In this document: positions 1,723 through 40,429 of the stretch, piece by piece
Position numbering within the stretch: the stretch's first letter is position 1
Layout of the letters: each line of letters opens with the position of its first letter
Assembly: GCA_964291675.2 (NCBI GenBank)
Contig: OZ219865.1
Span: forward strand, 192,001-256,000
Direction: 5' to 3'
Source: Alphaproteobacteria bacterium
GTDB taxonomy: Bacteria > Pseudomonadota > Alphaproteobacteria > MPNO01
Length of the DNA: 64,000 bases
The notes under the pieces: model-generated
Databases searched by the model: none
Told to the model about the DNA's origin: nothing
Seen by the model: the letters and a program-made list of their open reading frames with translations, nothing else
Made by a program: the position numbers and the translations under genes

Positions 1723-4700
1723 CAACTGCCTGTGCAAGGACCGAAAGGCCCGGCGGAGGTGGCACGCTCGCCAATGTACGATAAACACGTAGTCGCAGTT
1801 CGGAGTACTGATCCATCAAACTCGCTAGGCGTCTGCTCATGTCCGATGCGCCGCCTCTATCCGCTCGATCCAACACACCTCCCGCTATCAGGTCTACAAG
1901 ACGCGACGCAGCGGACATGGTTCCTCGGCCGCACACGGAATCACGCCATTCCCGGCTTGAATATAGCTGAGGCTCATTTTCTGCGAGCTGAAAGAGCGCG
2001 TCTTCTGCATCGTCTCCGGGCGCATATTGTAACGCGCCTACCACTTCTTCCAACACAGCCATTGTCCAGTGTGGTTGGGGTAGGTCTTTTAGGATGTCGA
2101 TAATCTCCGAAGGGCCATTTGTGAACGGAAGAGCCATCAGCAAATCCTGTAGCTCACGCCCCTGCATGAGAATCCAAGGTTGTTCTTCACCGGCTTCTAA
2201 CAACTCCGCAATGCCTTGCTTTACCAGTTCTACATCGATTAGCTCCCCAGAGAGGATGAGGTTGGTCAGGAGTGGCCCACGGCTCCGCCAGTCAACCATG
2301 TCGAGCAGGGCGTCAAATAAGTCTCTTCTCACGCCGTGTGGAAGGCCAGCAGCAACAGTGCCGAGGGCGACTGCACGATTCTTTGCGTCGTCCGTAGCCT
2401 TTTCAGCAATCAGCTTCTCCACGGCCGAGAAGATGGCATCGGCTTCCGCAGATGACACGTTTGGCTCTTTTTCTCTCGCTTCTCGCTTCTCGCCGATTCG
2501 AGAAAAATCCCTCGACCGTATCCACCACATGTCGTCGCGAGGTTCGTTTGTCTCTCGCCATTGACCTGCGAGTACCAATGCAGCTAGTTCGCCAAAGTCT
2601 TCATCAAACAGATAACTTTTCATCAACTCCGTTGTCTCAGGACAACGAATTGCAAGAAAGGCATTTTGGTACCAATTGATCCAAGACATTCGTGCTTCGT
2701 TTGTGGCGATACCCTCGCGGTAGCCCTCTGCGTGCGCTTGCTCCCTGAATGCTCGCCAGCGTCGCAATTCCTCGTTCAGCAGCCGCTCCAAGACTCCAAG
2801 CAGTCGCGGTGATGGCGCATGACCTGCTAGCGATGCCACCGAGGCGAGCTGCTCACGTGTTGAATCAGGCGAAGCTAGCAGCGCCTGCCCCCAGTCCTCT
2901 ACATACTTCGCAATTGTGTCGTGGGCTTCGACATTGAACGGCCGACCTCCCCTGTGAACTCCATCCCCTTGACGACGAATTAAATTCGTGAACTCACGTA
3001 TCTGGTGATTGCTCGCGTCCTTGGATCGCAAGCGGATTGCAGTAAGTAGATGCGTCGTCTTTGCGGATCCGATACGGCCCCTTATGACACTGTGGCGCTT
3101 AGCGGCCTCCTCATCATGCCTTCCATCGCGATCTTGCACCCGTTCTTCCAACTCCAACATCCGGTCAATCAACCGGCCCACCGCTTGAGGCCCGAGCAAC
3201 GACGCCGCGACATCGGCACGGTAATCGCGACGGCCCTCGGAGAGTGCAATGTCCAGAATGGCCTCATCCTCCACTGCAAACTCGGCTTCGGCCATAAGCT
3301 CGGCCGCCTGACCTGGAAGTTCGAGGCCCGCGCGCACGCGTGCAAGGATGCCTTCTGCCACGGCGCGCGGGAAGCGCTCACTCGCACCGTGAATGAGCTT
3401 TGCGACACCGTCGTTTCTTTCCGTGATTTCAGCTTCCGTAATCGCTATCGCTAGTTCAGCCTCTGTGTCGTCACCTTCCGGGCCATTGAGCAACGCGGAG
3501 ATTCGATCATAGGGCGGGAATCCCCGCGCCCGGCTCCGCTCACGTGCGGCCGCGAGCCTCTCTGCGACGCTACTTTTGGTTACGCGGTCGAATAGGTTCC
3601 TCTTTACCAATTGATCAAACACTTCGTTTTCAGCATCATGCAGCACGTCTATGATGTGTCGATCGGCCCGTCGGAACGCGAGCGCCTCGGCTACCGCTAC
3701 CCTCACTTCGGCTGCAGGATCAGTCTTGGCTACCGCCGCCGCGAGATCCAGTCCGTCCAGTCCACTGTCAAAAACTATTTCGGCAAGAATGCCTTCTCGA
3801 AGTTTTGCTGGGAGTGCTCGAATTCTGTCAGCCCCTTCGATACCTAATATTGAGGGTCGAAAGCGTCTGCTAGAACGTAGGGAGGCAATCTGGACTTGAT
3901 CGTCTACGTTCGTCATCAGTGGCCAGACGTACTCAAGGAAATCCTCGTGACCCGAAGTGAGCATGAATCTGACGGCATGATCGACCGTTCCGCGGGTATG
4001 CCAGCAATCAACAAAGCCCAGAACGTTCGATTTCACGCGCTGCCACACTGCGTCAGTGGATCGGTAGATCATTTCCGCGGAGAGGATAGGGTCCAGTTCA
4101 AGGGCAACAAGAATGGCTTCGCCGCAGGCCGCTTGCTCCGCCTCGTCTCCGCGCGCCAGTCGTTCACATGCAAATAGAATGGGTTCTTCCCACGCTCGCT
4201 GATCAAGAACGTCTGCCTTCAACTCACCGAGTGAGCGCTCATCGCTGACGCTCTGGCGCATTAGATTTTCCACGAAGTGAGAGGCATACCATTCCTGTAT
4301 TTGCTGGTGTTGGAACGAATAACCATGTGGTTTGTCGATTCTAATCAGAACATGGTGATCGACAAATATCTCAAGCACCTCACGGGGCTCGGGTCTGGCC
4401 GAAATCTGACCTTCCACAACGAAGACCTCACTGCTGTCCGAAATGGCGCTGCGTGCGGTGACCTCGACAATGGTTGTGTTCGCCGCGCGGGTCGCAGTAG
4501 CTCCTAAGTCTGCCAGGTACCGTTCGTGTAAGCCGTGCGTGACCTGTCTCAGCGCCTCAGCTTTCGGGTAGTCCCCTTCGTGAACCGCAACGAAATGTCG
4601 CAGAACCTCTTCTTTCGTCGACGGGATTGGTTTGCCTTCGGGAAGAGAGAGTAGCGCACTTAAGTACAAGGGGATCGTCACAAGTTCGCGCACGCCGGGC

Positions 4701-5731
4701 GTGCGCCACGCTTCATCTAGCAAGCGCTCGCCCGAGTCGCCACGCAACGCCCGAGCGATTTCAATCTGCTCTGTCTCGTTGAGCGATGGGAGAGATACCC
4801 GTTTGCCATCGATCGGAACATCAAGTGCTTGCTTGCGAGTCGCTATTAGCAGGTTGAGATCGGGCAGCTCCATTTTCAGCCGCCTAAGCTCGGCTGCCGC
4901 ACGTTGGCGTGAGTCGGCGTCCAGTTCGTTCCAGCCGTCTAGCAGCAGGAACACACCGGGGTTGGCTGCAATGCGTCGGAATTCGTTTTCTGCAACGCCT
5001 CGGAAGCTAGCTCGCTCCAAGATTGATTCGATCAGCGACAAGTCGCTCGTCGACCACTCGCCAAGAGGAACTACGATTGGCGATCCATACCCGTTCTCCA
5101 AGACTGCTTCAGCCAATTGAAACACCGCGGTCGTCTTGCCCATCCCGGGTTCGGCGACGACGACTAGATCGTCAAGGGTTGCAAGCGCCGCTGCCAGTCC
5201 TGATGTGCTGACTCGTTCATCAAGGCCATCCACTCGAAACGTCCTAGAGATTGCATTGGCCGACCAGGTGTCCGCGCGGCGAAAGGCTTCTAGATTTTTG
5301 ACGGCGACAACTCGCAGGACTTCATACATCTCGTCATCCCCAGGCTTGGGGATTGCACCCTCTTTCATCGGATCGAAATACGTGACACGGCGCCATGACC
5401 AAGCACTTGCGTTCCGCTTCCATTCGTGAAGTAACTCAACGGTGAACATCGGGTCTTGGCTATCCACAAGCCTGGCGTGTGTCTCACACAACCAAACTCC
5501 GTTACGTGCGGACTTTCGATCTTCTGGCGACATATCGGAATCGTATCGGGGGCCGCCAGGAGCCGCGGCGCATATGTGAGCAGCGACCCCAATATCGTTT
5601 ACGCCGTCGCCTTCTGAATTTGAACCGACGGTAGGCCGACGACACCAGGGGCAAGAACAGTGCCAGCCAGCTTGCTTTCCGATCTGGCGTCTTGTCGGCT
5701 CTGTAAAATTATCTCGCCTAGAAGTGCTCAT
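1723..5731 (-). pseudogene. HNH endonuclease-NACHT/STAND NTPase (NLR-like putative defence protein), interrupted near its C-terminus by IS256
   Basis: N-terminal CSCPWC...AAHICAAAPGGPRYD...NGVWLCETH (HNH-type); Walker A AEPGMGKTT; Walker B LLLDGWNE; PLYL and FQHQQIQEW winged-helix-like motifs; long helical C-terminal region; visibly lower GC than the backbone; start taken at MSTSRRDNF. Confidence 0.85.
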
Positions 5732-5794
5732 TCGGTATCCACTTGCTCGCACAGCACACTGTCAACTGCTCCCCAACGGGCCTTATCGGCGCCG

Positions 5795-5965
5795 TCTCGA
5801 GCTGCCGCCTAATGGATTGCCGGCGAAGCCCCGCGAGCTGATAGCGCAACTTCTCGATGAGGAGGTGGCGGTTGCGTAGGTCGGCCTCTCGGGGGGAGAA
5901 TTCGGCCTGCGCTGAGCGCACCATGCCTTGAAGCGCGGAAACATATTCGGGCAGCGCGACCATGG
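5795..5965 (-). pseudogene. Fragment of IS66-family TnpC N-terminal coiled coil
   Basis: LRNRHLLIEKLRYQLAGLRRQ resembles the IS66 TnpC leucine-zipper region; no DDE domain follows. Confidence 0.55.
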
Positions 5966-6546
5966 CGGTATAGTAGCAGACCAAACCGCCTGTTATTATA
6001 CTCAACCTATTGTATATAAATGTTTTTCATCCTACCGCAAGCGGTCGCCAGGCGTGCCTCGACGCCCGATCGCGGTAGGGACGGCCGTTGCCAGCCGCAC
6101 GGATCCGTACGTGTCCGACTAAGGCATACGGCTCCTACTGCCTGTGTGTGACGAGGGAGCGTTGCTCCGGCCACGGGTGGGTCACCTTTCAGTCTCTTGC
6201 AACTCCGGGATTGCATTGTCCAAGTTCATTTTGAAGAGCCTACACGACCTTCTTGCCTCATACGCGATCCCGCATCCAGACCGGTAGCCGTGCGTCCGTC
6301 AGCCCCGCGGCTGTCCTCGGTTTTCCCAGTGCCATCCCGGTGGCTCCCAGAGTGCCCGTAATCGCATAGCAATCAGCTGAATTCCACAACCAGGCAGTTC
6401 GAGTCGTCGCCAGTCGCGCCCGGCCGGCGTTTCGGCGTCATGACCCGGCATCTCCAATGAGGCCTCCTTCAGCGTCTTCTTGACCTCGATTGTGGGCGAC
6501 GTCGACGCCGAATCGAAACCGCCTCTCCGGTCGCCTGAGCGGCATG

Positions 6547-15511: not shown

Positions 15512-16135
15512 GACGGTCGATCCGCCACGGCGGGGCAGGGCGATGGATCGGCCAGAATGGGGACCCGGACCCGACAAGCGCGGGGACCGCGGGAGACGCC
15601 GCACTGTGGGGCGGATCGAGCGCGGCGGTGGGGATGGCGGCGAACCCGTTCGGAGCCCACCAGGCCGGCCGTCATAGGGCCGGCCGAGAGGGCGGTCGAT
15701 CCGCGGCCGCCCTCGCCCCCGGAATCGAACACGGTCGGGAATGTCGTCCTGGCGCTGCCCGAGAGTTCGGACTGCCGCCGAAGGCAGGCAACTGGCAGCC
15801 GTTCGCCATCACCGTCCCTCCATCGGCATCTCGAAGCGGGTAGCCACGGCCGCATGGCCCAGCCCCGACTCGGCCGCCGGCACGCTTCCGGTACACCGCG
15901 CTTCCGTGCGCGACCCGCGACCTCCGACGACACGCGATGGCCCGGCCGCCGTTTGCCCCCAATATCCGACGGCCCCCTGCCCGAAGTCTCGCCCGGTCGC
16001 TTTCCACACACGCAACCGGCTTCGTCCCCCTGCCGCAGCATGAAGGAGAGAGGAGCGGGCCGGCGTCGGGGCGCGGTGAATCGGGCTCGGAGGATGTCCG
16101 GGCCGCGCCGCCTCCCCGCCATTCGGAGCATGCCC

Positions 16136-17161
16136 ATGACTTTGCCCGAGACCATCTCCGCCGACTACACGCTGCGCCCGAGCGAGCTCGCCGAGGTTCT
16201 CGCCACCCTGGTCGAGGCCCGCCAGCCGACCATGCTGTGGGGCGGGCCCGGAACCGGCAAGAGCCAGGTCTCCAACCAGACGGCCGACCGCCTCGCATAC
16301 ACCTATCTCGACATCCGCGGCCCGCTCCTCGATCCCGTGGACCTGCGCGGTATCCCCTGGCGCGACGAGTTCGGCCGCACCCGCTGGGCGCCGCCCGCCT
16401 TCCTTCCCCCGACCGACAGCACCGAGCAATACCTCATCAACCTGGAGGAGCTTCCTTCTTCCGTGCCCATGGTGCAGGTCGCCCTGTTCCAGCTCTGCCT
16501 GGAACGCCGGATCGGCGAGTACGAACTGCCTCCGGGCGCAGCGATCATCGCCTGCGGCAACCGCGAGCAGGACCGCTCGATCGTGCACCGCATGCCCGCC
16601 CCGCTCGCCAATCGCTTCGTCCATCTGGAGATCCGGGTCGACGCGAGGGACTGGCTTGCCTGGGGAGCCGCGAACGGGATCGCGCCGGAAGTGCTGTTCT
16701 TCATCGAGCTGGAACCGGACCTGCTTCACGGCTTCAATCCCCAGTCGAAGGAGCACGCCTTCCCGAGCCCCCGGAGCTGGGAGTTCGCTTCCAACATCGT
16801 CAAGAACCGCAACGGCCTCGATGCCGGTGTCGAAAGGGCGCTGTTCCGGGGCACGGTGGGCGAGGCCGCGGCGGTCGAGTTCACCTCGTTCCTGAAGGTG
16901 TGGCGCGAGCTGCCCCACCCGAGGGCCGTCCTCGACGATCCCGGCAACGCCGACATTCCGGAGAACGCCAGCACCCTGATGGCGCTCTGCGGCTCCCTCT
17001 ACCGGATGGCCTCCGACGTCAATCTGGACGCCATTGTCACCTACGCGACACGGCTTCGACGCGAAGTCGGCGAGTCGCTCGTCGGCGCCTGCGTGCGCCG
17101 CGAGCCCGCGCTCCAGCGCTCGCCCGCCTTCATCCGCTGGGCGGCGGCAAAGACGCAGTGA
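16136..17161 (+). CDS. MoxR-like AAA+ ATPase
   Basis: Walker A LWGGPGTGKS, DPVDLRGIP, Walker B YLINLEEL, ACGNR, PLANRF, FPSPRSW. Confidence 0.9.
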   Translation: MTLPETISADYTLRPSELAEVLATLVEARQPTMLWGGPGTGKSQVSNQTADRLAYTYLDIRGPLLDPVDLRGIPWRDEFGRTRWAPPAFLPPTDSTEQYLINLEELPSSVPMVQVALFQLCLERRIGEYELPPGAAIIACGNREQDRSIVHRMPAPLANRFVHLEIRVDARDWLAWGAANGIAPEVLFFIELEPDLLHGFNPQSKEHAFPSPRSWEFASNIVKNRNGLDAGVERALFRGTVGEAAAVEFTSFLKVWRELPHPRAVLDDPGNADIPENASTLMALCGSLYRMASDVNLDAIVTYATRLRREVGESLVGACVRREPALQRSPAFIRWAAAKTQ

Positions 17162-17225
17162 CGGAGGACGCCGCCGCCCTTGGCGTCCCCCCGCGAACGC
17201 TCCGCCAACCCGAGAGGAGGAACCG

Positions 17226-18125
17226 ATGGACCTCAACCGCGACGCAATGCTGGTCGGGCTGCACATCGCCGCCTGGTCCGGCCGGCTCTACGACCGCCAG
17301 GCGAGCGACCATGTCGCCGTCGCCCACGAAGCCTCGACCGCCGCCGGGCGCTACAACAAGCGCCTGCTGCCCAAGGCCGCCTTCGCCGCCCTCACCGCGA
17401 CCATGAGCGAGGCGAGGGCCAAGCACTATGCCAACTCGCTTCCCTGGGACGACAAGGGCGCGCGGCTGCTCACCGTGGCCAACTACGAGCACTACACGGA
17501 GCTCATGGACGGGTTCCGGGAGCGCGTGGTGCGCCAGCGCGCCCGCTTCATCGAGGATTACGACGACTACATCGACCAGGCCCGGCTCGACCTCGGCAAG
17601 CTCTTCCGCATCGAGGACTATCCCTCCAAGGAAGACCTCCAGGGCAAGTTCGCCATCCGCTACCGCATCACCCCGGTGCCGGACGCGGACCATTTCATCG
17701 CCCAGCTCGCCTCCGACGACACCGAGCGGGTGAAGCGCGACATCGAGAGCCACATCGAGGAGCAGCTCCACGGTGCGGTGGGCGACCTCTACCGCCGCTT
17801 CGGCGAGGCGATCGAACGGGTCTCGGAGCGGCTGCGGGAGGACGACGAGGGCAAGCCGCTGGTGTTCCGCGACACGATGATCTCGAACATCCGCGACCTA
17901 GTGGACGTGGTGCCGCGTCTCAACATATTCGGCGACGAGACCCTGGCGCAGCTCTGCGCGCAGGTGAAGGAGAAGATCGCGAGCGTCGAGCCGAACGCGC
18001 TTAGGCCATCGAAGACCTTCGACCCGGCGGCCCGGGCCCAGGTCAAGCGCGACGCCGACGCGCTCGCGGAGAAGTTCGCGGGGTATTTCGGGGCGCGGAC
18101 CGAGCCGGTGCGGGAGGCCGCCTGA
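17226..18125 (+). CDS. Hypothetical helical protein (DUF3150-like, phage/ICE type)
   Basis: RBS gaggagg; WSGRLYDR...GRYNKRLLP...SLPWDDKGARLL; lies between the AAA and VWA genes. Confidence 0.65.
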   Translation: MDLNRDAMLVGLHIAAWSGRLYDRQASDHVAVAHEASTAAGRYNKRLLPKAAFAALTATMSEARAKHYANSLPWDDKGARLLTVANYEHYTELMDGFRERVVRQRARFIEDYDDYIDQARLDLGKLFRIEDYPSKEDLQGKFAIRYRITPVPDADHFIAQLASDDTERVKRDIESHIEEQLHGAVGDLYRRFGEAIERVSERLREDDEGKPLVFRDTMISNIRDLVDVVPRLNIFGDETLAQLCAQVKEKIASVEPNALRPSKTFDPAARAQVKRDADALAEKFAGYFGARTEPVREAA

Positions 18126-20087: not shown

Positions 20088-20266
20088 TCCCGTTGGTCCC
20101 GGACACGGCCCCGCACCGCCCTCCCGCCGCGGCATCCCGGCCCTGCCCGCAACGCCGCCGGGAGGCGGAGCGTGGGGCGGGGCCCGGGGCGGCGCGGACG
20201 GAGTTCCGGGAGGCGTTTCCCGAGCCCGCTTCCGTGCATTTCCACACACCACCGAGGGAGGTTCGC

Positions 20267-22705
20267 ATGAACTTCATCGCCCCCAGGGCCGAGCCGATCA
20301 TCCGGGAGATCCCGCTCTCCATGCTCGCGCTCGCGCCCGAGAACGTCCGCAAGACCCCGCCCGATCCGCAGGCCGACGCCGCGCTCAAGGCCTCGATCGC
20401 CGCTTTCGACCTGCTGGAGAACCTGGTCGTCCGCCCGGATCCCGGATCGGGGGAGCCTGCCCCGGCCCCCGAGCCGGAGGGACAGGCTATCGAACGCTAC
20501 GCCGTGATCGCCGGCGGGCGCCGCCTCAAGGCCATGCAGGAACTGGTCGAGGACGGCGTGTTCGATGCCGCCCATCCCGTGCCCTGCCAGGTCCGGTCCG
20601 GCGACGCCGCGACCGGCGAGATTTCGCTCGCCGAGAACGTGGTGCGCATCGCCATGCACCCCGCCGACCAGGTGACGGCCTTCGCCGAGCTGGTCGCGGC
20701 CGGCCAGTCGGTCGCCGCCATCGCGGCGCGCTTCGGCGCGTCGGAACGGATCGTCGAGCAGCGGCTCCGCCTTGGCAACGCCGCGCCCGAGCTGCTGGAC
20801 GCCTACCGCGGGGGCGATATCGACCTGGAGACGCTCAAGGCCTTCGCGGTGACCGCCGACCATGCCCGCCAGATGGCGGTGTGGGAGCAGGTCTCCGGCC
20901 AGGGCTACCGGCCCGCGGCCGCGCAGGTGAAGCGCATGCTGACCGAGGAGCGGGTGCCGGCGAACGTCGCCATCGCCCGCTTCGTGGGCGTCGACGCCTA
21001 CGAGGCCGCGGGCGGCGCGGTCATGCGCGACCTGTTCGCCGACGAGCACGAGCACGGCGTCTGGTTCGAGGACCCGGCGCTGCTGGAGACGCTGGCGATG
21101 GACAAGCTCCGGGCCGCCGCCGACGAGCTCGCGACCCGCTGGAAATGGGCGATCCCGATGATCGAGGCAGGGTGGGACGACACCGCCTCCTACGGCCGCA
21201 TCGAGCCGCAGCCCGGCGTTCCCACCGACGAGGAGAAGGCCGAGATCGAGAAGCTTGAGGCCCGCTACGACGAGCTCCGCGGCCTCGACGACGACGCGTG
21301 GACCGAGGCCCTGGTCGAGGAAGCCGAACGCATCGAGGCCCGGCTCGACGAGATCGGGGGCGCCGTCGAGGCCCGCGCCATGTGGCGGCGCGAGGATTTC
21401 GCGATGGCGGGGTGCATCGCCACCGTCAACGGCAACGGCTCCCTCCATGTCATCGCCGGGCTGGTCAAGCCGGAAGACATGCCGAAGCCGGCGCAGTCCG
21501 ACGACGCGGCAACGCAGACCGCCAGCGGCCTCGAACCGGACGCCGCGGCCCATGGCACGCAGGCCGCCGGCCCGGTCGTCTCCCAGCCCATGGCGGGGCC
21601 GAGGAACCGCGAGGCCGAGGCGCGCAAGGAGGCGGGCGTTGGGATCGGTCTCGCCGACGACCTGCGTTCGATCCGCACCGCGCTCATCAAGGCCCATCTC
21701 GCCGGTAACTTCGAGGCCGCCTTCGACCTCGCGCTGTTCCAGATGGTCCGTGCGGTGTTCACGCCGGGCTACCACGACCACGCCCTCGACATCGCGTTCA
21801 ACGAGACCCCGGACCGCCCCAACACCCGCAAAAACGACGCGGACTTCGCGGCCTGGTCGCCGGGCGAGGCGATGCTGGCGGACCGCTCGCGCCTGTCCTT
21901 CGACTGGCTGGAGATCGAGGACGACGGCGAGTCCTTCGCGGCCTTGAGGGCACTGCCCCAGGCGGACAAGGAGGCGCTGTTCGCGGCCAGCGTCGCGCGC
22001 ACGGTGATGGGCCAGCTCGCCTTCGAGCCCCAGGCGCGGCCCGAGCTCGAAGCTACCGTCGCCCGGCTCGACATCGACTTCGCGGCCCATGTCCGCCCGA
22101 CCGCCGACATGCTGTGGTCGCGCATCGCCAAGGCCCGGGTCCTCGACATCGCCCGCACGGTGTTCGGGCTCGCTTGGGCGTCGGCGCGGTCCAAGTACAA
22201 GAAGCCGGCCCTGGCCGAAGCCATGGAGGCCGCCTTCACTGCCGACGAGCCGCCGGTCGGCGTGAGCGCTTCGATGCACGCCGCCGCACTCGCCTGGGTC
22301 CCGCCCGGGTTCACGGCGTTCGACACCGGCCAAGCGGTCGGCGACGCCGGGGACGCGGCGACCGCGGCCGCCCAATCCGACGCGGGCCCCGCAGACGACG
22401 CGGAAGCGGCTGCCGCGGCGCCTGCCGACGGCAACGGCCATGTCGTCCCGCCGGAGCCTGAACCGGCGACCGCGGAACGCGGTGACGGCGCTCCCACCGG
22501 AGACGCCGGGCGCCAGATCGGCGGCACGAACGGCGAGGCCGAACCCGATTGCGGCACGGACGAGCCCGGGAACGGACACGCCGACGCCGCGCCGGCAACG
22601 GACGAGGCCGGACATGCCGGTCCGATCCCTCCGGTTCCGGCCAACGGGCGCGACGCCAGCCCGGACCCGATGGAGATCCCCGAGTTCCTCCGCCGCGTCC
22701 AGTAG
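20267..22705 (+). CDS. Large leading-region ParB/Spo0J-like protein (812 aa) with acidic disordered tail ending MEIPEFLRRVQ
   Basis: ENVRKT, LLENLVV, VIAGGRRLKAM (CTPase Arg motif), SLAENVVR, MHPADQ, HTH; RBS gggagg. Confidence 0.92.
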   Translation: MNFIAPRAEPIIREIPLSMLALAPENVRKTPPDPQADAALKASIAAFDLLENLVVRPDPGSGEPAPAPEPEGQAIERYAVIAGGRRLKAMQELVEDGVFDAAHPVPCQVRSGDAATGEISLAENVVRIAMHPADQVTAFAELVAAGQSVAAIAARFGASERIVEQRLRLGNAAPELLDAYRGGDIDLETLKAFAVTADHARQMAVWEQVSGQGYRPAAAQVKRMLTEERVPANVAIARFVGVDAYEAAGGAVMRDLFADEHEHGVWFEDPALLETLAMDKLRAAADELATRWKWAIPMIEAGWDDTASYGRIEPQPGVPTDEEKAEIEKLEARYDELRGLDDDAWTEALVEEAERIEARLDEIGGAVEARAMWRREDFAMAGCIATVNGNGSLHVIAGLVKPEDMPKPAQSDDAATQTASGLEPDAAAHGTQAAGPVVSQPMAGPRNREAEARKEAGVGIGLADDLRSIRTALIKAHLAGNFEAAFDLALFQMVRAVFTPGYHDHALDIAFNETPDRPNTRKNDADFAAWSPGEAMLADRSRLSFDWLEIEDDGESFAALRALPQADKEALFAASVARTVMGQLAFEPQARPELEATVARLDIDFAAHVRPTADMLWSRIAKARVLDIARTVFGLAWASARSKYKKPALAEAMEAAFTADEPPVGVSASMHAAALAWVPPGFTAFDTGQAVGDAGDAATAAAQSDAGPADDAEAAAAAPADGNGHVVPPEPEPATAERGDGAPTGDAGRQIGGTNGEAEPDCGTDEPGNGHADAAPATDEAGHAGPIPPVPANGRDASPDPMEIPEFLRRVQ

Positions 22706-22818: not shown

Positions 22819-24576
22819 ATGAACCGCGCGATCCGCGCCCGTATCCACGAGAACGCCGTCAAGCGCGTCACCCGCATCTACGCCGCAACCCTCGCCGACA
22901 TCTTCGCCGAGACCCTCCAGAACAGCCGCCGCGCCGGCGCCACGCGGGTGCGCGTTTCGGTTGCCGCGCCCGCCGCCCCGCCTGGCGACACCGCCACCGC
23001 GGCCGGCGAGACGCCGCTTACCGTCACCGTTTCCGACGACGGCGCCGGCATCGCCGACCCCGCCGTCCTGCTGAGCTTCGGCGAGAACGGCTGGGACGAC
23101 GCGACGGTCCGGCGCGAGGACGCCGCCGGGTTCGGCTTCGCCAGCCTGGCGCGCCGCGACTGCGCCGTGTCCTCCCGGCCGCGTTCGCCGAACGGGGAGT
23201 TCCTGTCTGGCTGGCGCGTCGCGCTCGCGCCGGAGCATTTCCTCGGAGAGGCGGACGCCGAGGTGCAGGCCGACGAATCCGCCCCGTATCCGTACGGGAC
23301 GGCGATTTCGTTCGTGGCCACGGAGTCCGCCGCCGCGATCCGCAACGCGGCCGAGACCGCCGCCCGGCACTACCCGCTGCCGGTGACGTTCGAGGACGGC
23401 ACCGGGGACGATGCCGCCGTCCACGCGCTGCCGCGCCGCGCCTTCCTCGACGGCGCCGTCCATGCCGAACCGTGGCGGGGTCTGGTGTTCGGCGTCTTTC
23501 GCAACCGCCGCGGCGGCTACAACGACCCCCACCTCAACTTCCACGGCCTTACGCTCACGGTCGGCCTGCCCACCGTCGAGACCGTCCACGGCGCGCCCTG
23601 GACCGTCCTCGCCGACGTCGACGACTGCCCCGACCTCGAGCTGGTCCTGCCGGCCCGCAAGGAAGCGGTCGAGAACGATTTTCTCAAGGAGATGAGGGAG
23701 GCCGCCCGGCTCTCGATCTACCGCGCCATGGCCGCCGATCCGAACCCGCGTCCCGCCTTCGAGGACTGGACGCGGGCGCGCGGGGCCGGCATCGAGATCG
23801 CGCCGCCTCCCGCCATGCTGCGCCCCTGGCGGCCGGCAACGGCGGACGTCGACGACTGGCGCGACCCGCCGAAGCTCGCCCCCGCGGGCGCGGACGCCCT
23901 CGTCATGGACTGCGACACCGAGCCGCCGGAAGACCAGGCGCTGTGGCGTGCCGCCGAGCGGGCCGGGATCGCATCCCGCCTGTTCGGGACCGACCGCAGG
24001 CTCGAAGGCTATGGCTGGTACGACGCCCTCGACCGCGTGACCGGCGTCGCCATAGAAGTCACGCTGGACGGCAAGCGGTACGCGCTCGACGACACCCCGC
24101 TGCCGGAGCGGACCGGACCCACCGCCGCGCTGCTCCCGCCCCGTCCCGAGGCGGTCGGCATCGCGCTCGCGGTCCGCACGCCGGACGGGCAGTCCCGCAC
24201 CCTGGACCTGCCGGCCGACGTCGCGTTCGCGGGCGAGGCGTGGTGCGGGTTCGAAGACGCGGTGCCGCTGCTGGCCGTGGACAGCGCTCTCCAGCCGCAC
24301 GAGCTGGCCGTTCTGCTCAGGGCCGGGTTCTTCTCGCCCTCGGACGATATGGAGGCGGACAGCTGGGAGACCCAGAGGGACCGCTTCGACGAGGACGCGC
24401 TGCACCTGGCGACCCGGCTGCTGCTCGGCGACGACGAGGCCTGCCGGCTATCCATCGCCGAGACCGTCCGGCGCGAGCTGATGTGGCTCGTGCCCGGGGA
24501 CCGTGGCGTCGACATCCGCATCCGCCGGCCCGACGTGACGGTGACGCTCGCCGCCGCCGGGGAGACCGCGCCGTGA
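22819..24576 (+). CDS. GHKL (HATPase_c) ATP-binding protein
   Basis: ETLQNSRRAGA (N box), VSDDGAGI (G1), EDAAGFGFASL (G2); RBS ggagg. Confidence 0.85.
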   Translation: MNRAIRARIHENAVKRVTRIYAATLADIFAETLQNSRRAGATRVRVSVAAPAAPPGDTATAAGETPLTVTVSDDGAGIADPAVLLSFGENGWDDATVRREDAAGFGFASLARRDCAVSSRPRSPNGEFLSGWRVALAPEHFLGEADAEVQADESAPYPYGTAISFVATESAAAIRNAAETAARHYPLPVTFEDGTGDDAAVHALPRRAFLDGAVHAEPWRGLVFGVFRNRRGGYNDPHLNFHGLTLTVGLPTVETVHGAPWTVLADVDDCPDLELVLPARKEAVENDFLKEMREAARLSIYRAMAADPNPRPAFEDWTRARGAGIEIAPPPAMLRPWRPATADVDDWRDPPKLAPAGADALVMDCDTEPPEDQALWRAAERAGIASRLFGTDRRLEGYGWYDALDRVTGVAIEVTLDGKRYALDDTPLPERTGPTAALLPPRPEAVGIALAVRTPDGQSRTLDLPADVAFAGEAWCGFEDAVPLLAVDSALQPHELAVLLRAGFFSPSDDMEADSWETQRDRFDEDALHLATRLLLGDDEACRLSIAETVRRELMWLVPGDRGVDIRIRRPDVTVTLAAAGETAP

Positions 24577-39238: not shown

Positions 39239-39400
39239 CCGGCGCATGGCCGCCGGCCTCGGGCCTGCCGGCCCGGCCTCGCGCCCGCGCTTCGCTCGGG
39301 GCGCTCGCCCCGCTTGCCCCGGACCCGTTCCGGGGGCTCCGCCAGGAGGCGGAGGCCGGCCGGTATGGGGCGTCCCGCAGGTCCCCGAAGGAGGTCCCCC

Positions 39401-40429
39401 ATGCACCACGGTCCGTCTCCCGCCGCCGCCGTCGCCGCGGCGCTCGCCGCGCGCGCCGAGGAGGTGTGCCGGCGCTATCTGCCGAACGGCCGCCGGCTCG
39501 GCCGCTACTGGATCTGCGGCGACCTCGACGGCGCTCGCGGCCGCTCGCTCTTCGTCCGCCTCTCCGGATCCGGCAAGCCGGGGAAGTGGACCGACGCCGC
39601 GACCGGCGAGCACGGCGACCTGCTCGATCTCATCCAGTACCGCACCAACGCGCCGACGCTGCGCGCGGCGCTCGACGAGGCGCGCGCGTTCCTCGCCCTG
39701 GAGCCTGCCCCCCCGGATCGGGGTCCGGGGCAGGCGGACCGCGTTCCGGGGGTGTCGGACGCGCCCTACGACGCGACCGAGGCGGCGCGCCGCCTGTGGC
39801 GGCGCTGCCGCGCGGTCGACGGCAGCCACGCCGAGCGCTATCTGCGGGCGCGGGGTCTGTCGCGCTGCCGCTTCGCGGCGCTGCGCTTCCATTCCGCGCT
39901 TCGCTACCGCGAAGGCTCGTCGGTGCGCCGGTTCCCGGCGCTGGTCGCCGCCGTCACCGGCGACGACGGTGCGATTACCGGGGTGCAGCGCACCTGGCTC
40001 GATCCGGACCGGCCCGCCCAGGCGGACATCGCGAACTCGCGCAAGGCGCTCGGCCGCATCTACGGCCTCGCGGTGCGCTTCGGCGTCCCCTCCGACGACG
40101 CTGCGCTCGTCGTCGGGGAGGGCATCGAGACCGTGCTCTCGCTGGTCACCGCCGTGCCGGAGATCACGGCGGCCGCCGCGCTCTCGGCCGGGAGCCTCGG
40201 CGCGTTCGCGCCTCCGCCCGGCGTCGCGCGCCTGGTGATCGCCCGCGACAGCGACGAGGACGGCGCGCTCGCGGCCGAACGCCTCGCCCGGCGCTGCGCG
40301 CGGCTCGGCATTGCCACGACTGTCGTCGTGCCTGTCGGCGACGACTTCAACGACGATCTGGTCGCGCTCGGCTCGGCGGCGCTGCGCGCCCGCTTCGCGC
40401 CGCTGTTCCCTCCCGCCGCGTGCCCCTGA
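39401..40429 (+). CDS. Plasmid-type Toprim-domain primase-like protein
   Basis: GKWTDAATGEHGDLLDLI, AERYLRARG, TGVQRTWL, VGEGIETVLS, IARDSD, DDFNDDL. Confidence 0.88.
   Translation: MHHGPSPAAAVAAALAARAEEVCRRYLPNGRRLGRYWICGDLDGARGRSLFVRLSGSGKPGKWTDAATGEHGDLLDLIQYRTNAPTLRAALDEARAFLALEPAPPDRGPGQADRVPGVSDAPYDATEAARRLWRRCRAVDGSHAERYLRARGLSRCRFAALRFHSALRYREGSSVRRFPALVAAVTGDDGAITGVQRTWLDPDRPAQADIANSRKALGRIYGLAVRFGVPSDDAALVVGEGIETVLSLVTAVPEITAAAALSAGSLGAFAPPPGVARLVIARDSDEDGALAAERLARRCARLGIATTVVVPVGDDFNDDLVALGSAALRARFAPLFPPAACP

Follow-up and report, generated by a model that had tools for sequence, protein, structure and literature searches.

Why would a DNA clamp encoded by a mobile element end in what looks like the last residues of FtsZ? 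The question is raised by one gene in a stretch of 64,000 nucleotides (nt) from an alphaproteobacterial genome (GenBank assembly GCA_964291675.2, contig OZ219865.1, positions 192,001 to 256,000), here called the window, to which all coordinates refer unless another locus is named. The open reading frame (ORF) at 20267 to 22705 on the + strand encodes P0001, a ParB-like protein of 812 amino acids (aa) carried by an integrated conjugative element, and its C terminus, SPDPMEIPEFLRRVQ, stands directly before the stop codon. By its body, P0001 is a member of the YfjB/ParB2/HerB family, an already described kind of protein from conjugative plasmids; the tail appears to be undescribed in the literature. 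Judged by its conservation, this tail is under selection and is a real docking motif. The best single explanation, to which we assign a probability of about 0.45, is that it would act as a docking peptide for a receptor of the FtsZ tail, such as FtsA or ClpX. Binding by any such receptor, and every effect downstream of it, we infer from sequence. The gene and its parts lie as follows.

20254 to 20261, + strand: Shine-Dalgarno-like GAGGGAGG, 6 nt 5' of the P0001 ATG (read from the sequence)
20267 to 22705, + strand: P0001 gene, HerB/YfjB/ParB2-type ParB-like clamp, 812 aa (translation, homologues, and tblastn to the IncF ssb-parB2-psiB locus)
20342 to 20944, + strand: ParB N-terminal CTP-binding domain and helix-turn-helix (HTH) region, residues 26 to 226 (NCBIfam, phmmer)
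20513 to 20524, + strand: GGRR, residues 83 to 86 (opposite GERR of Noc; conservation in 60 homologues)
20633 to 20647, + strand: E-N-V-V-R, residues 123 to 127 (opposite ENLQR of Noc; conservation in 60 homologues)
20945 to 22330, + strand: C-terminal body, residues 227 to 688, equivalent to HerB D3-D4 (homology, helical model)
22331 to 22657, + strand: disordered acidic Ala/Gly/Pro/Asp linker, residues 689 to 797 (composition, predicted local distance difference test [pLDDT] score below 50, divergence)
22658 to 22702, + strand: conserved tail SPDPMEIPEFLRRVQ, residues 798 to 812, with a motif like the FtsZ C-terminal peptide (conservation, likeness to FtsZ)

The case for selection is made by the homologues. 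Among the 120 closest, all at least 71% identical to P0001, 117 have IP[EG]FLRR[VI] at the C terminus, either as the very last residues or with one further Q, H, or R; the ends of the remaining three bear no relation to it. The linker ahead of this motif varies from 65 to 137 aa among these 117 relatives. Mean identity to P0001 over 125 aligned sequences was 0.84 in the tail and 0.80 in the body but fell to 0.33 in the linker, and at single positions it reached 0.98 for each of P805, F807, and L808, 0.96 for R809, and 0.95 for R810. In a 32-row alignment that includes six sequences of 47 to 56% identity, P805, F807, and L808 are the only invariant columns past residue 688, and G794, R809, and R810 are conserved at 90% or more. 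An earlier sequence-only reading of this DNA had named tail conservation against linker divergence as the comparison on which its proposal should be judged. The tail is indeed kept while the linker diverges among close homologues, and for this reason we consider the tail to be under selection.

The linker comprises 109 aa, 68% of which are Ala, Pro, Gly, or Asp, with 21 acidic and 3 basic residues. In an AlphaFold2 monomer model (32-row alignment; predicted template modeling score, 0.34), residues 681 to 812 have pLDDT values below 50, and the sole helix among them consists of three residues, 806 to 808. Folding of the tail back onto the body of P0001 was set aside as improbable on the basis of this model, which has no confident contacts of this kind. 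The sequence-only reading had described a folded ParB body with an intact GGRR motif, an acidic linker of about 110 aa, and a C-terminal tail whose methionine is encoded at 22670; all of this holds, with M802 placed at nt 22670 by translation. The variable linker also contains an N-G-x-D motif (N793 to D796; 22643 to 22654) with identities of 0.93 to 0.96, eight residues before the tail.

How close is the tail to that of FtsZ in the host? The assembly (two contigs, 4.8 Mb, 93.7% complete) lacks ftsZ, ftsA, and murC, and the FtsZ and FtsA proteins of the same genus were therefore used for comparison. FtsZ is present in all 20 relatives searched, and the cluster of division and cell wall genes probably fell into an assembly gap. 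FtsZ proteins of the genus end in EEDLLDIPAFLRRQAN or close variants, also given as DLLDIPAFLRRQAN (11 relatives). Placed in register, D-P-M-E-I-P-E-F-L-R-R-V-Q of P0001 and D-L-L-D-I-P-A-F-L-R-R-Q-A-N of FtsZ have D, I, P, F, L, R, and R in common, the M/L and E/D replacements are conservative, and both peptides end acidic, Ala/Pro-rich disordered linkers. The I-P-x-F-L-R core noticed in the sequence-only reading is retained, and I-P-x-F-L-R-R is common to P0001 and the FtsZ of the host genus. P0001 likewise has the class pattern of FtsZ peptides, [DE]-[ILV]-P-x-F-[LM]-[RK] near the C terminus after a long disordered linker.

Taken alone, this likeness is modest. When the 11-mer of the genus FtsZ was scored with BLOSUM62 against 7.1 million six-frame positions of the genome, 19 positions scored at least as high as the P0001 tail. 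Two HerB-like tails are included in this number, and just these two sit within five residues of a stop. The pattern [ED][ILV]PxF[LM] has 10 matches among the 5,751 likely genes of the genome; three are near a C terminus, and two of these three are the clamps. Because the BLOSUM62 score by itself is not unique in the genome, the significance of the likeness rests on conservation. A recent capture of the 3' end of ftsZ as DNA was rejected, since the codons for P, F, L, R, and R are all synonymous but different.

A second protein provides our strongest argument. The 12 genomes of the genus were searched with a degenerate DNA pattern for I-P-[AED]-F-L-R-R, with the reversed pattern as a control; the pattern had 48 sites and the control none. 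Sorted by coordinates and inspection, 11 of the sites lie in ftsZ, 28 in HerB-like genes (for three of which the motif lies just past the stretch matched in the homologue search), and 4 in fragments of HerB-like genes. Another three fall in ORFs, short or rich in Arg, that are unlikely to be genes, and the remaining two mark the start of a protein of 110 aa, encoded at the following loci.

2223 to 2555 of locus L134 (G004:C2:808302 region), - strand: gene of the 110-aa protein (motif pattern)
2472 to 2804 of locus L133 (G007:C212), + strand: gene of the 110-aa protein (motif pattern)

The 110-aa protein starts with MTRPDDTDLLAIPDFLRR (M-T-R-P-D-D-T-D-L-L-A-I-P-D-F-L-R-R), a closer copy of the FtsZ tail than that of P0001. 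In 22 sequences of its family, 51 to 97% identical, the peptide reads D-L-L-[AD]-I-P-x-F-L-[RQ]-R, with I12, P13, F15, L16, and R18 invariant and D8, L9, and L10 conserved at 90% or more. It is followed by a divergent basic linker and then by a conserved domain, modeled as three helices and a hairpin (pLDDT, 88 to 95), whose likeness to a winged helix is weak (best Foldseek E-value, 0.05; none at or below 0.001). At L134, a neighboring DUF7146-Toprim gene, separated from the gene of the 110-aa protein by an IS110 transposase gene, resembles that at 39314 to 40429 of the window. The 110-aa protein was not found in the genome of P0001. Because two unrelated mobile-element proteins in one genus display peptides like the FtsZ tail, the FtsZ peptide itself would seem to be the model for both.

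What kind of protein carries the tail? The best NCBIfam match of P0001 is PRTRC_parB (4.4e-16; residues 26 to 226), and all matches to ParB families are below the curated cutoffs. Our local copy of Pfam gave no match to P0001 at an E-value of 0.01 or less; a protein database nonetheless lists PF02195 for it. Residues 77 to 210 align with Noc (7ng0 and 7nfu) and Spo0J (1vz0) in phmmer searches, and in the HMMER alignment to 7ng0, IAGGRRLKA of P0001 stands opposite IAGERRWRA of Noc and LAENVVRIAMHP opposite LIENLQREELTP. We take GGRR to be the arginine motif of ParB box II and E-N-x-x-R to be box III. In an alignment of 60 sequences, with relatives of 32 to 56% identity, no substitution occurs at G83, R86, or N124, and conservation reaches 90% or more at R85, E123, and R127; hence, the motifs of the CTP pocket are intact, and P0001 presumably binds or hydrolyzes CTP. 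The rest of the body is modeled by AlphaFold2 as helical, with pLDDT values of 70 to 94 in most blocks, and closes at W-V-P-P-G-F (677 to 682), where W677 and G681 are invariant in the 60 homologues.

Proteins of this kind are abundant. At an E-value of 0.001 or less, P0001 has at least 3,527 homologues among the best 8,000 candidates scored and 8,177 matching representatives at 50% clustering. A tblastn search of PLSDB matched at least 5,000 plasmid records; among the matches listed, most were conjugative plasmids of Escherichia and Klebsiella, and query coverage was 80% or more in 300 records. The gene matched in IncF plasmids is flanked by ssb and psiB, and its product aligns with residues 12 to 626 of the query at 28 to 31% identity (E-values, 1e-35 to 1e-41), and homology to the ParB2/HerB-type proteins of plasmids extends to about residue 626 to 683.

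Members of the family have been described. YfjB of the F plasmid was renamed HerB in a bioRxiv preprint of July 2026 (PMC13370423), the main text of which presents HerB as a CTPγS-binding dimer that consists of a ParB-like D1, an HTH domain D2, and the new domains D3 and D4. According to the same text, D4 mediates the dimer, and a flexible C-terminal extension after D4 (637 to 652) is unresolved in the structure. Zygotic induction and chromosomal foci are described as well: HerB synthesis is switched on in new transconjugants, the protein associates with the host chromosome and reprograms its transcription, and its action is confined to the earliest stages after transfer. The product of parB2 of pED208, in the excerpted results of another study (PMC8406263), is translocated through the F-type type IV secretion system (T4SS) and, as an N-terminal Cre fusion, had the highest translocation frequency of six proteins tested. 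The main text of the HerB preprint contains no mention of FtsZ or of a function of the tail, and "division" and "filament" occur there only in reference titles. Neither full-text searches of the literature nor this main text yielded a ParB-like or HerB protein described as carrying a peptide like that of FtsZ, and the full-text searches found no natural protein described as displaying a copy of the FtsZ tail. The sequence-only reading knew of no description of such a system, which was wrong for the family and, as far as these texts go, right for the tail.

The motif reaches well beyond the clade of P0001. In a sample of P0001 and 150 representatives at 50% clustering (151 rows, 44 of them without a recognizable body end), an acidic linker with [ILVMFA]-P-x-[FWY]-[LMIF] in the last 30 residues was present in 50 of the 107 rows with such an end, P0001 included; in 46 rows the protein stops within 45 residues past this end, and in 11 a linker is present but the motif is lacking. 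A diverse set of 122 full-length proteins (86 representatives and 36 genome-derived genes) contained [ILVA]-P-x-[FW]-[LM] in the last 50 residues of 53. In these 53, the hydrophobic position is Leu in 39, x is Ala in 30, and Glu or Asp stands directly ahead of the motif in 30, so that the consensus of the family, E-L-P-A-F-L, matches the FtsZ core. The form in which basic residues and then a stop follow is concentrated in the clade around P0001. Named bearers of the motif include the pAt plasmid of Agrobacterium tumefaciens (MPF_T/MOBQ) and a Roseovarius plasmid (MOBP), and the motif as a whole spans elements with F-type, P-type (MPF_T/MOBQ), and MOBP transfer systems.

The genome-derived relatives, about 30% identical to P0001, have an end of another sort: 35 of 36 finish in A-A or A-A-E, with A-L-A-A in betaproteobacterial members, H-A-A or D-A-A in enterobacterial ones, and [VILM]-A-A-E in most alphaproteobacterial ones. 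In loci L018 to L053, these ends have the look of a further conserved signal at the terminus, perhaps a degron of the ssrA kind. Two single tails are of note. That of L022 (G277:C203) has two tandem copies of the motif, A-L-P-A-F-L and P-L-P-P-F-L, ahead of its A-A-E end, and the protein of L047 (G372:C11) ends in E-S-N-D-I-P-Y, resembling the acidic D-D-D-I-P-F tip of SSB. The latter end hints that different clades of clamps may carry different peptides for host hubs.

Could the partner of the tail be encoded by the element itself? The window contains a TrwC relaxase and the F-type T4SS genes for TraC, TraG (TraG_N), TraH, TraN, and TraU, as well as genes for SSB, RadC, SRAP, a methylase-Strawberry-notch helicase, the DUF7146-Toprim protein (39314 to 40429), a RepB/ParB protein, a DUF2201 metallopeptidase/VWA protein, and a serine recombinase. 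The element, integrated together with this recombinase in a contig of 1.15 Mb, bears out the claim of the sequence-only reading that the clamp belongs to a mobile element; the T4SS, relaxase, and SSB are those of a conjugative one. The P0001 gene is flanked by the DUF2201 gene and by the following gene.

22819 to 24576, + strand: downstream gene with weak likeness to HATPase_c, 585 aa (Pfam HATPase_c, 5e-4, below the cutoff)

In loci of the same genus, the clamp gene has the DUF2201 gene as a neighbor in 11 of 15 and the HATPase-like gene in 14 of 15; neither occurs in any of 38 distant loci, including the 12 with the motif. Both neighbors were rejected as partners of the tail on this ground. 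Because the motif spans several transfer systems and the close neighbors are absent from the distant loci, a partner in the host is likelier than one specific to the element.

Elements of this family are common in the genus. A second clamp copy on the other contig is 78% identical to P0001 and has the same tail, and homologues of P0001 occur in 10 of 11 other genomes of the genus, with up to nine matches per genome, and in none of nine genomes of other genera among the relatives searched. In two of the genus genomes (G005 and G011), which have up to nine matches each at 54 to 83% identity, the family appears unusually prolific. Elsewhere in the window, two ORFs without a Pfam match (15557 to 17161 and 17034 to 18125) lie upstream of the DUF2201 gene and with it precede the clamp gene, a Mutator-family transposase gene occupies 456 to 1652, and the G+C content of 2001 to 6000 is 0.56 to 0.57, against about 0.72 elsewhere.

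How might a copy of the FtsZ peptide serve a conjugative element? We hypothesize that P0001 is a dimeric clamp of the ParB fold that would bind CTP and DNA on the integrated F-type (MPF_F/MOBF) element of its alphaproteobacterial host. In the P0001 clade, a disordered acidic tether of about 110 aa would present [ML]-[ED]-I-P-E-F-L-R-R at the extreme C terminus, and by this copy of the FtsZ peptide the DNA-bound clamp might be gripped by those host proteins that bind the FtsZ tail. Candidate receptors in the genus are FtsA, which its genomes encode, the unfoldases ClpX and ClpA, and proteins of the FzlC type; MinC_C was not found in the four genus genomes searched. Either of two outcomes could follow; the sequence-only reading had proposed tethering of the element at midcell or a delay of division. 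DNA of the element or the nucleoid, coated by the clamp, might become coupled to the membrane anchors of FtsZ, or the tail might compete with FtsZ for these anchors, the reverse of SlmA, which is described in the excerpted text of PMC4117426 as a DNA-activated antagonist of FtsZ assembly. A predicted complex of FtsA (residues 1 to 395, same genus, 19 rows) with the tail (residues 771 to 812, 32 rows) scored 0.00 and 0.01 against a mark of 0.32; it was run without controls and counts neither way.

Several observations weigh against docking to an FtsZ-tail receptor. The tail of P0001 has Glu rather than Ala at position x, and it ends in V-Q where FtsZ ends in A-N. Only 15 of the 53 motif-bearing proteins of the diverse set have a basic residue after F-[LM], with T, S, Q, D, or E in the others, and 12 of the 36 genome-derived relatives have [DE]-L-P-x-F-L 14 to 33 residues ahead of their A-A-E end. 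On a FastTree phylogeny of the body (57 of 119 branches starred, without bootstrap), presence and absence of the motif require at least 15 changes, and the motif is thus easily gained and lost. It is absent from the enterobacterial and betaproteobacterial members examined, though the FtsZ of these bacteria has it. Nor do clamp tails track the variants of FtsZ in 20 genomes that have both a HerB-like gene and ftsZ, a comparison in which FtsZ is nearly constant and which has little power within one phylum: FtsZ ends in [DE]-I-P-A-F-L-R-R-Q in most Alphaproteobacteria and in I-P-A-F-L-R-K-Q-A-D in the other classes sampled. The FtsZ of one host family ends in I-P-R-F-L-[GH]-R-Q-N-N-Q; one of its members pairs D-I-P-R-F-L-H-R-Q in FtsZ with P-L-P-D-F-L-V-D in the clamp, and two other hosts of this family have clamps without the motif. 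Finally, the characterized member, F HerB, is reported in the main text of the preprint to act on host transcription (PMC13370423).

Alternatively, the tail would dock another partner common to the HerB family, for example RNA polymerase or a nucleoid or transfer factor, and the likeness to FtsZ would be a coincidence. We regard this as rather unlikely, even though it accommodates the missing covariation, a family-wide [ILV]-P-x-F-[LM] that lacks the arginines of FtsZ in 38 of 53 proteins and usually lies inside a longer tail with A-A-E at its end, the 17 other six-frame positions of the genome that score as high as the tail, and a HerB that, in the main text of its preprint, reprograms transcription and not division (PMC13370423). 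A coincidence would have to reproduce the FtsZ core residue by residue, save L for I, in the family consensus, to keep R809 and R810 in the P0001 clade in addition, and to recur in the unrelated 110-aa protein, whose copy, D-L-L-x-I-P-x-F-L-R-R, extends further upstream. That the likeness is due to chance and the tail has no function is hardly credible: the score of the single sequence is unexceptional, but the tail is strongly conserved next to a diverging linker and the motif recurs in diverse relatives.

The tail could also be chiefly a turnover signal that hands the clamp over to ClpXP or ClpAP and keeps its action after transfer brief, replacing in the P0001 clade the A-A or A-A-E end of its relatives. 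Such a role is equally compatible with the likeness, because the C terminus of FtsZ is itself a Clp recognition site: a review of degrons tabulates that of E. coli FtsZ as a recognition site of ClpX, and a change of the last two residues to D-D stabilized Caulobacter FtsZ. The same review gives L-A-A as the end of the ssrA tag, which the A-A and A-A-E ends of the relatives resemble, and the early action described for HerB in the main text of its preprint (PMC13370423) fits as well. We nevertheless consider turnover as the chief role unlikely. P0001 ends in R-R-V-Q, which is neither an ssrA-like hydrophobic residue with A-A nor the A-N end of FtsZ, and L-P-A-F-L and A-A-E coexist in many relatives, 0 to 33 residues apart, which makes them look like two modules. 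This explanation would overlap with mimicry if ClpX recognizes the tail as a copy of FtsZ. Much less likely again is a signal for type IV secretion, by which the clamp would accompany the DNA into the recipient. Secretion signals are typically unstructured tails at the C terminus. The pED208 protein ParB2, of the same family, passes through an F-type T4SS according to the excerpted results (PMC8406263). However, the enterobacterial ParB2-type proteins examined, pED208 ParB2 not among them, lack L-P-x-F-L, so the translocation of ParB2 should not need the motif, and the motif occurs alike with F-type, P-type/MOBQ, and MOBP systems. Signals of the VirB/D4 type are net positive and Arg rich in the C-terminal 20 to 30 residues; tail and linker of P0001 are net acidic, and the last 15 residues contain three acidic and two basic ones.

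Docking of the P0001 tail to an FtsZ-tail receptor thus remains our preferred explanation. A wider proposal, that conjugative elements and phages of Alphaproteobacteria repeatedly graft the FtsZ peptide by disordered tethers onto DNA-binding proteins, here the HerB-type clamp and the 110-aa protein, we hold to be doubtful. Such a "reverse SlmA" would couple incoming or resident element DNA to FtsA or other receptors of the FtsZ tail, or would titrate these, and so time or block host division, or place the element at the septum, during establishment. Why do these tails matter? Clamps of the HerB type are found on thousands of plasmid records, a function in reprogramming the recipient was assigned to them only lately, and their C-terminal tails have been left unresolved and undiscussed. 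The sequences compared here show that these tails carry short, selected docking motifs that differ by clade, one of them a near copy of the FtsZ tail, and such motifs give a concrete hypothesis for how the clamps are connected to the machinery of the host. If the FtsZ-tail explanation is true, P0001 would be the first case found in print of a mobile element that displays, rather than binds, the FtsZ peptide, and the establishment of plasmids and of integrative and conjugative elements would be tied to cell division or to a timing set by Clp. Should this explanation fail, the tail would still be a handle on the real partner of an abundant plasmid protein.

Set beside known systems, P0001 combines parts that are familiar one by one. 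Like HerB, YfjB, and ParB2, it has a ParB N-terminal CTP-binding domain and an HTH followed by a large helical C-terminal half, and it is carried by a conjugative element among genes for SSB, RadC, SRAP, a methylase-helicase, and Toprim. Unlike the enterobacterial proteins of this family, which stop about 25 residues past the W-V-P-G-W-M that closes the body, finish in A-A, and lack the motif, it continues through the 109-aa acidic linker to I-P-E-F-L-R-R; its neighbors are the DUF2201 and HATPase-like genes instead of the ssb and psiB of IncF plasmids, and its element is integrated. With FtsZ it shares the long acidic, Ala/Pro-rich disordered linker and [DE]-I-P-x-F-L-R-R a few residues before the stop. 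FtsZ, however, is a tubulin-like GTPase and P0001 a DNA clamp, the residues before the acidic one are L-L in FtsZ and P-M in P0001, the last ones are Q-A-N and V-Q, and there is no homology at the DNA level. The 110-aa protein, found on related elements, repeats the combination of a conserved FtsZ-tail-like peptide, a divergent disordered linker, and a probable nucleic acid-binding domain, but its peptide is N terminal, its linker basic, its domain small and winged-helix-like, and its sequence unrelated. Noc, the closest solved relative of the N-terminal domain of P0001 by sequence (7ng0; E-value, 3e-5), and SlmA are both bound to DNA and connect the nucleoid with division. Noc works by means of a membrane helix at its N terminus, and SlmA binds the FtsZ tail; P0001, by contrast, would display a copy of that tail, a link of the opposite polarity.

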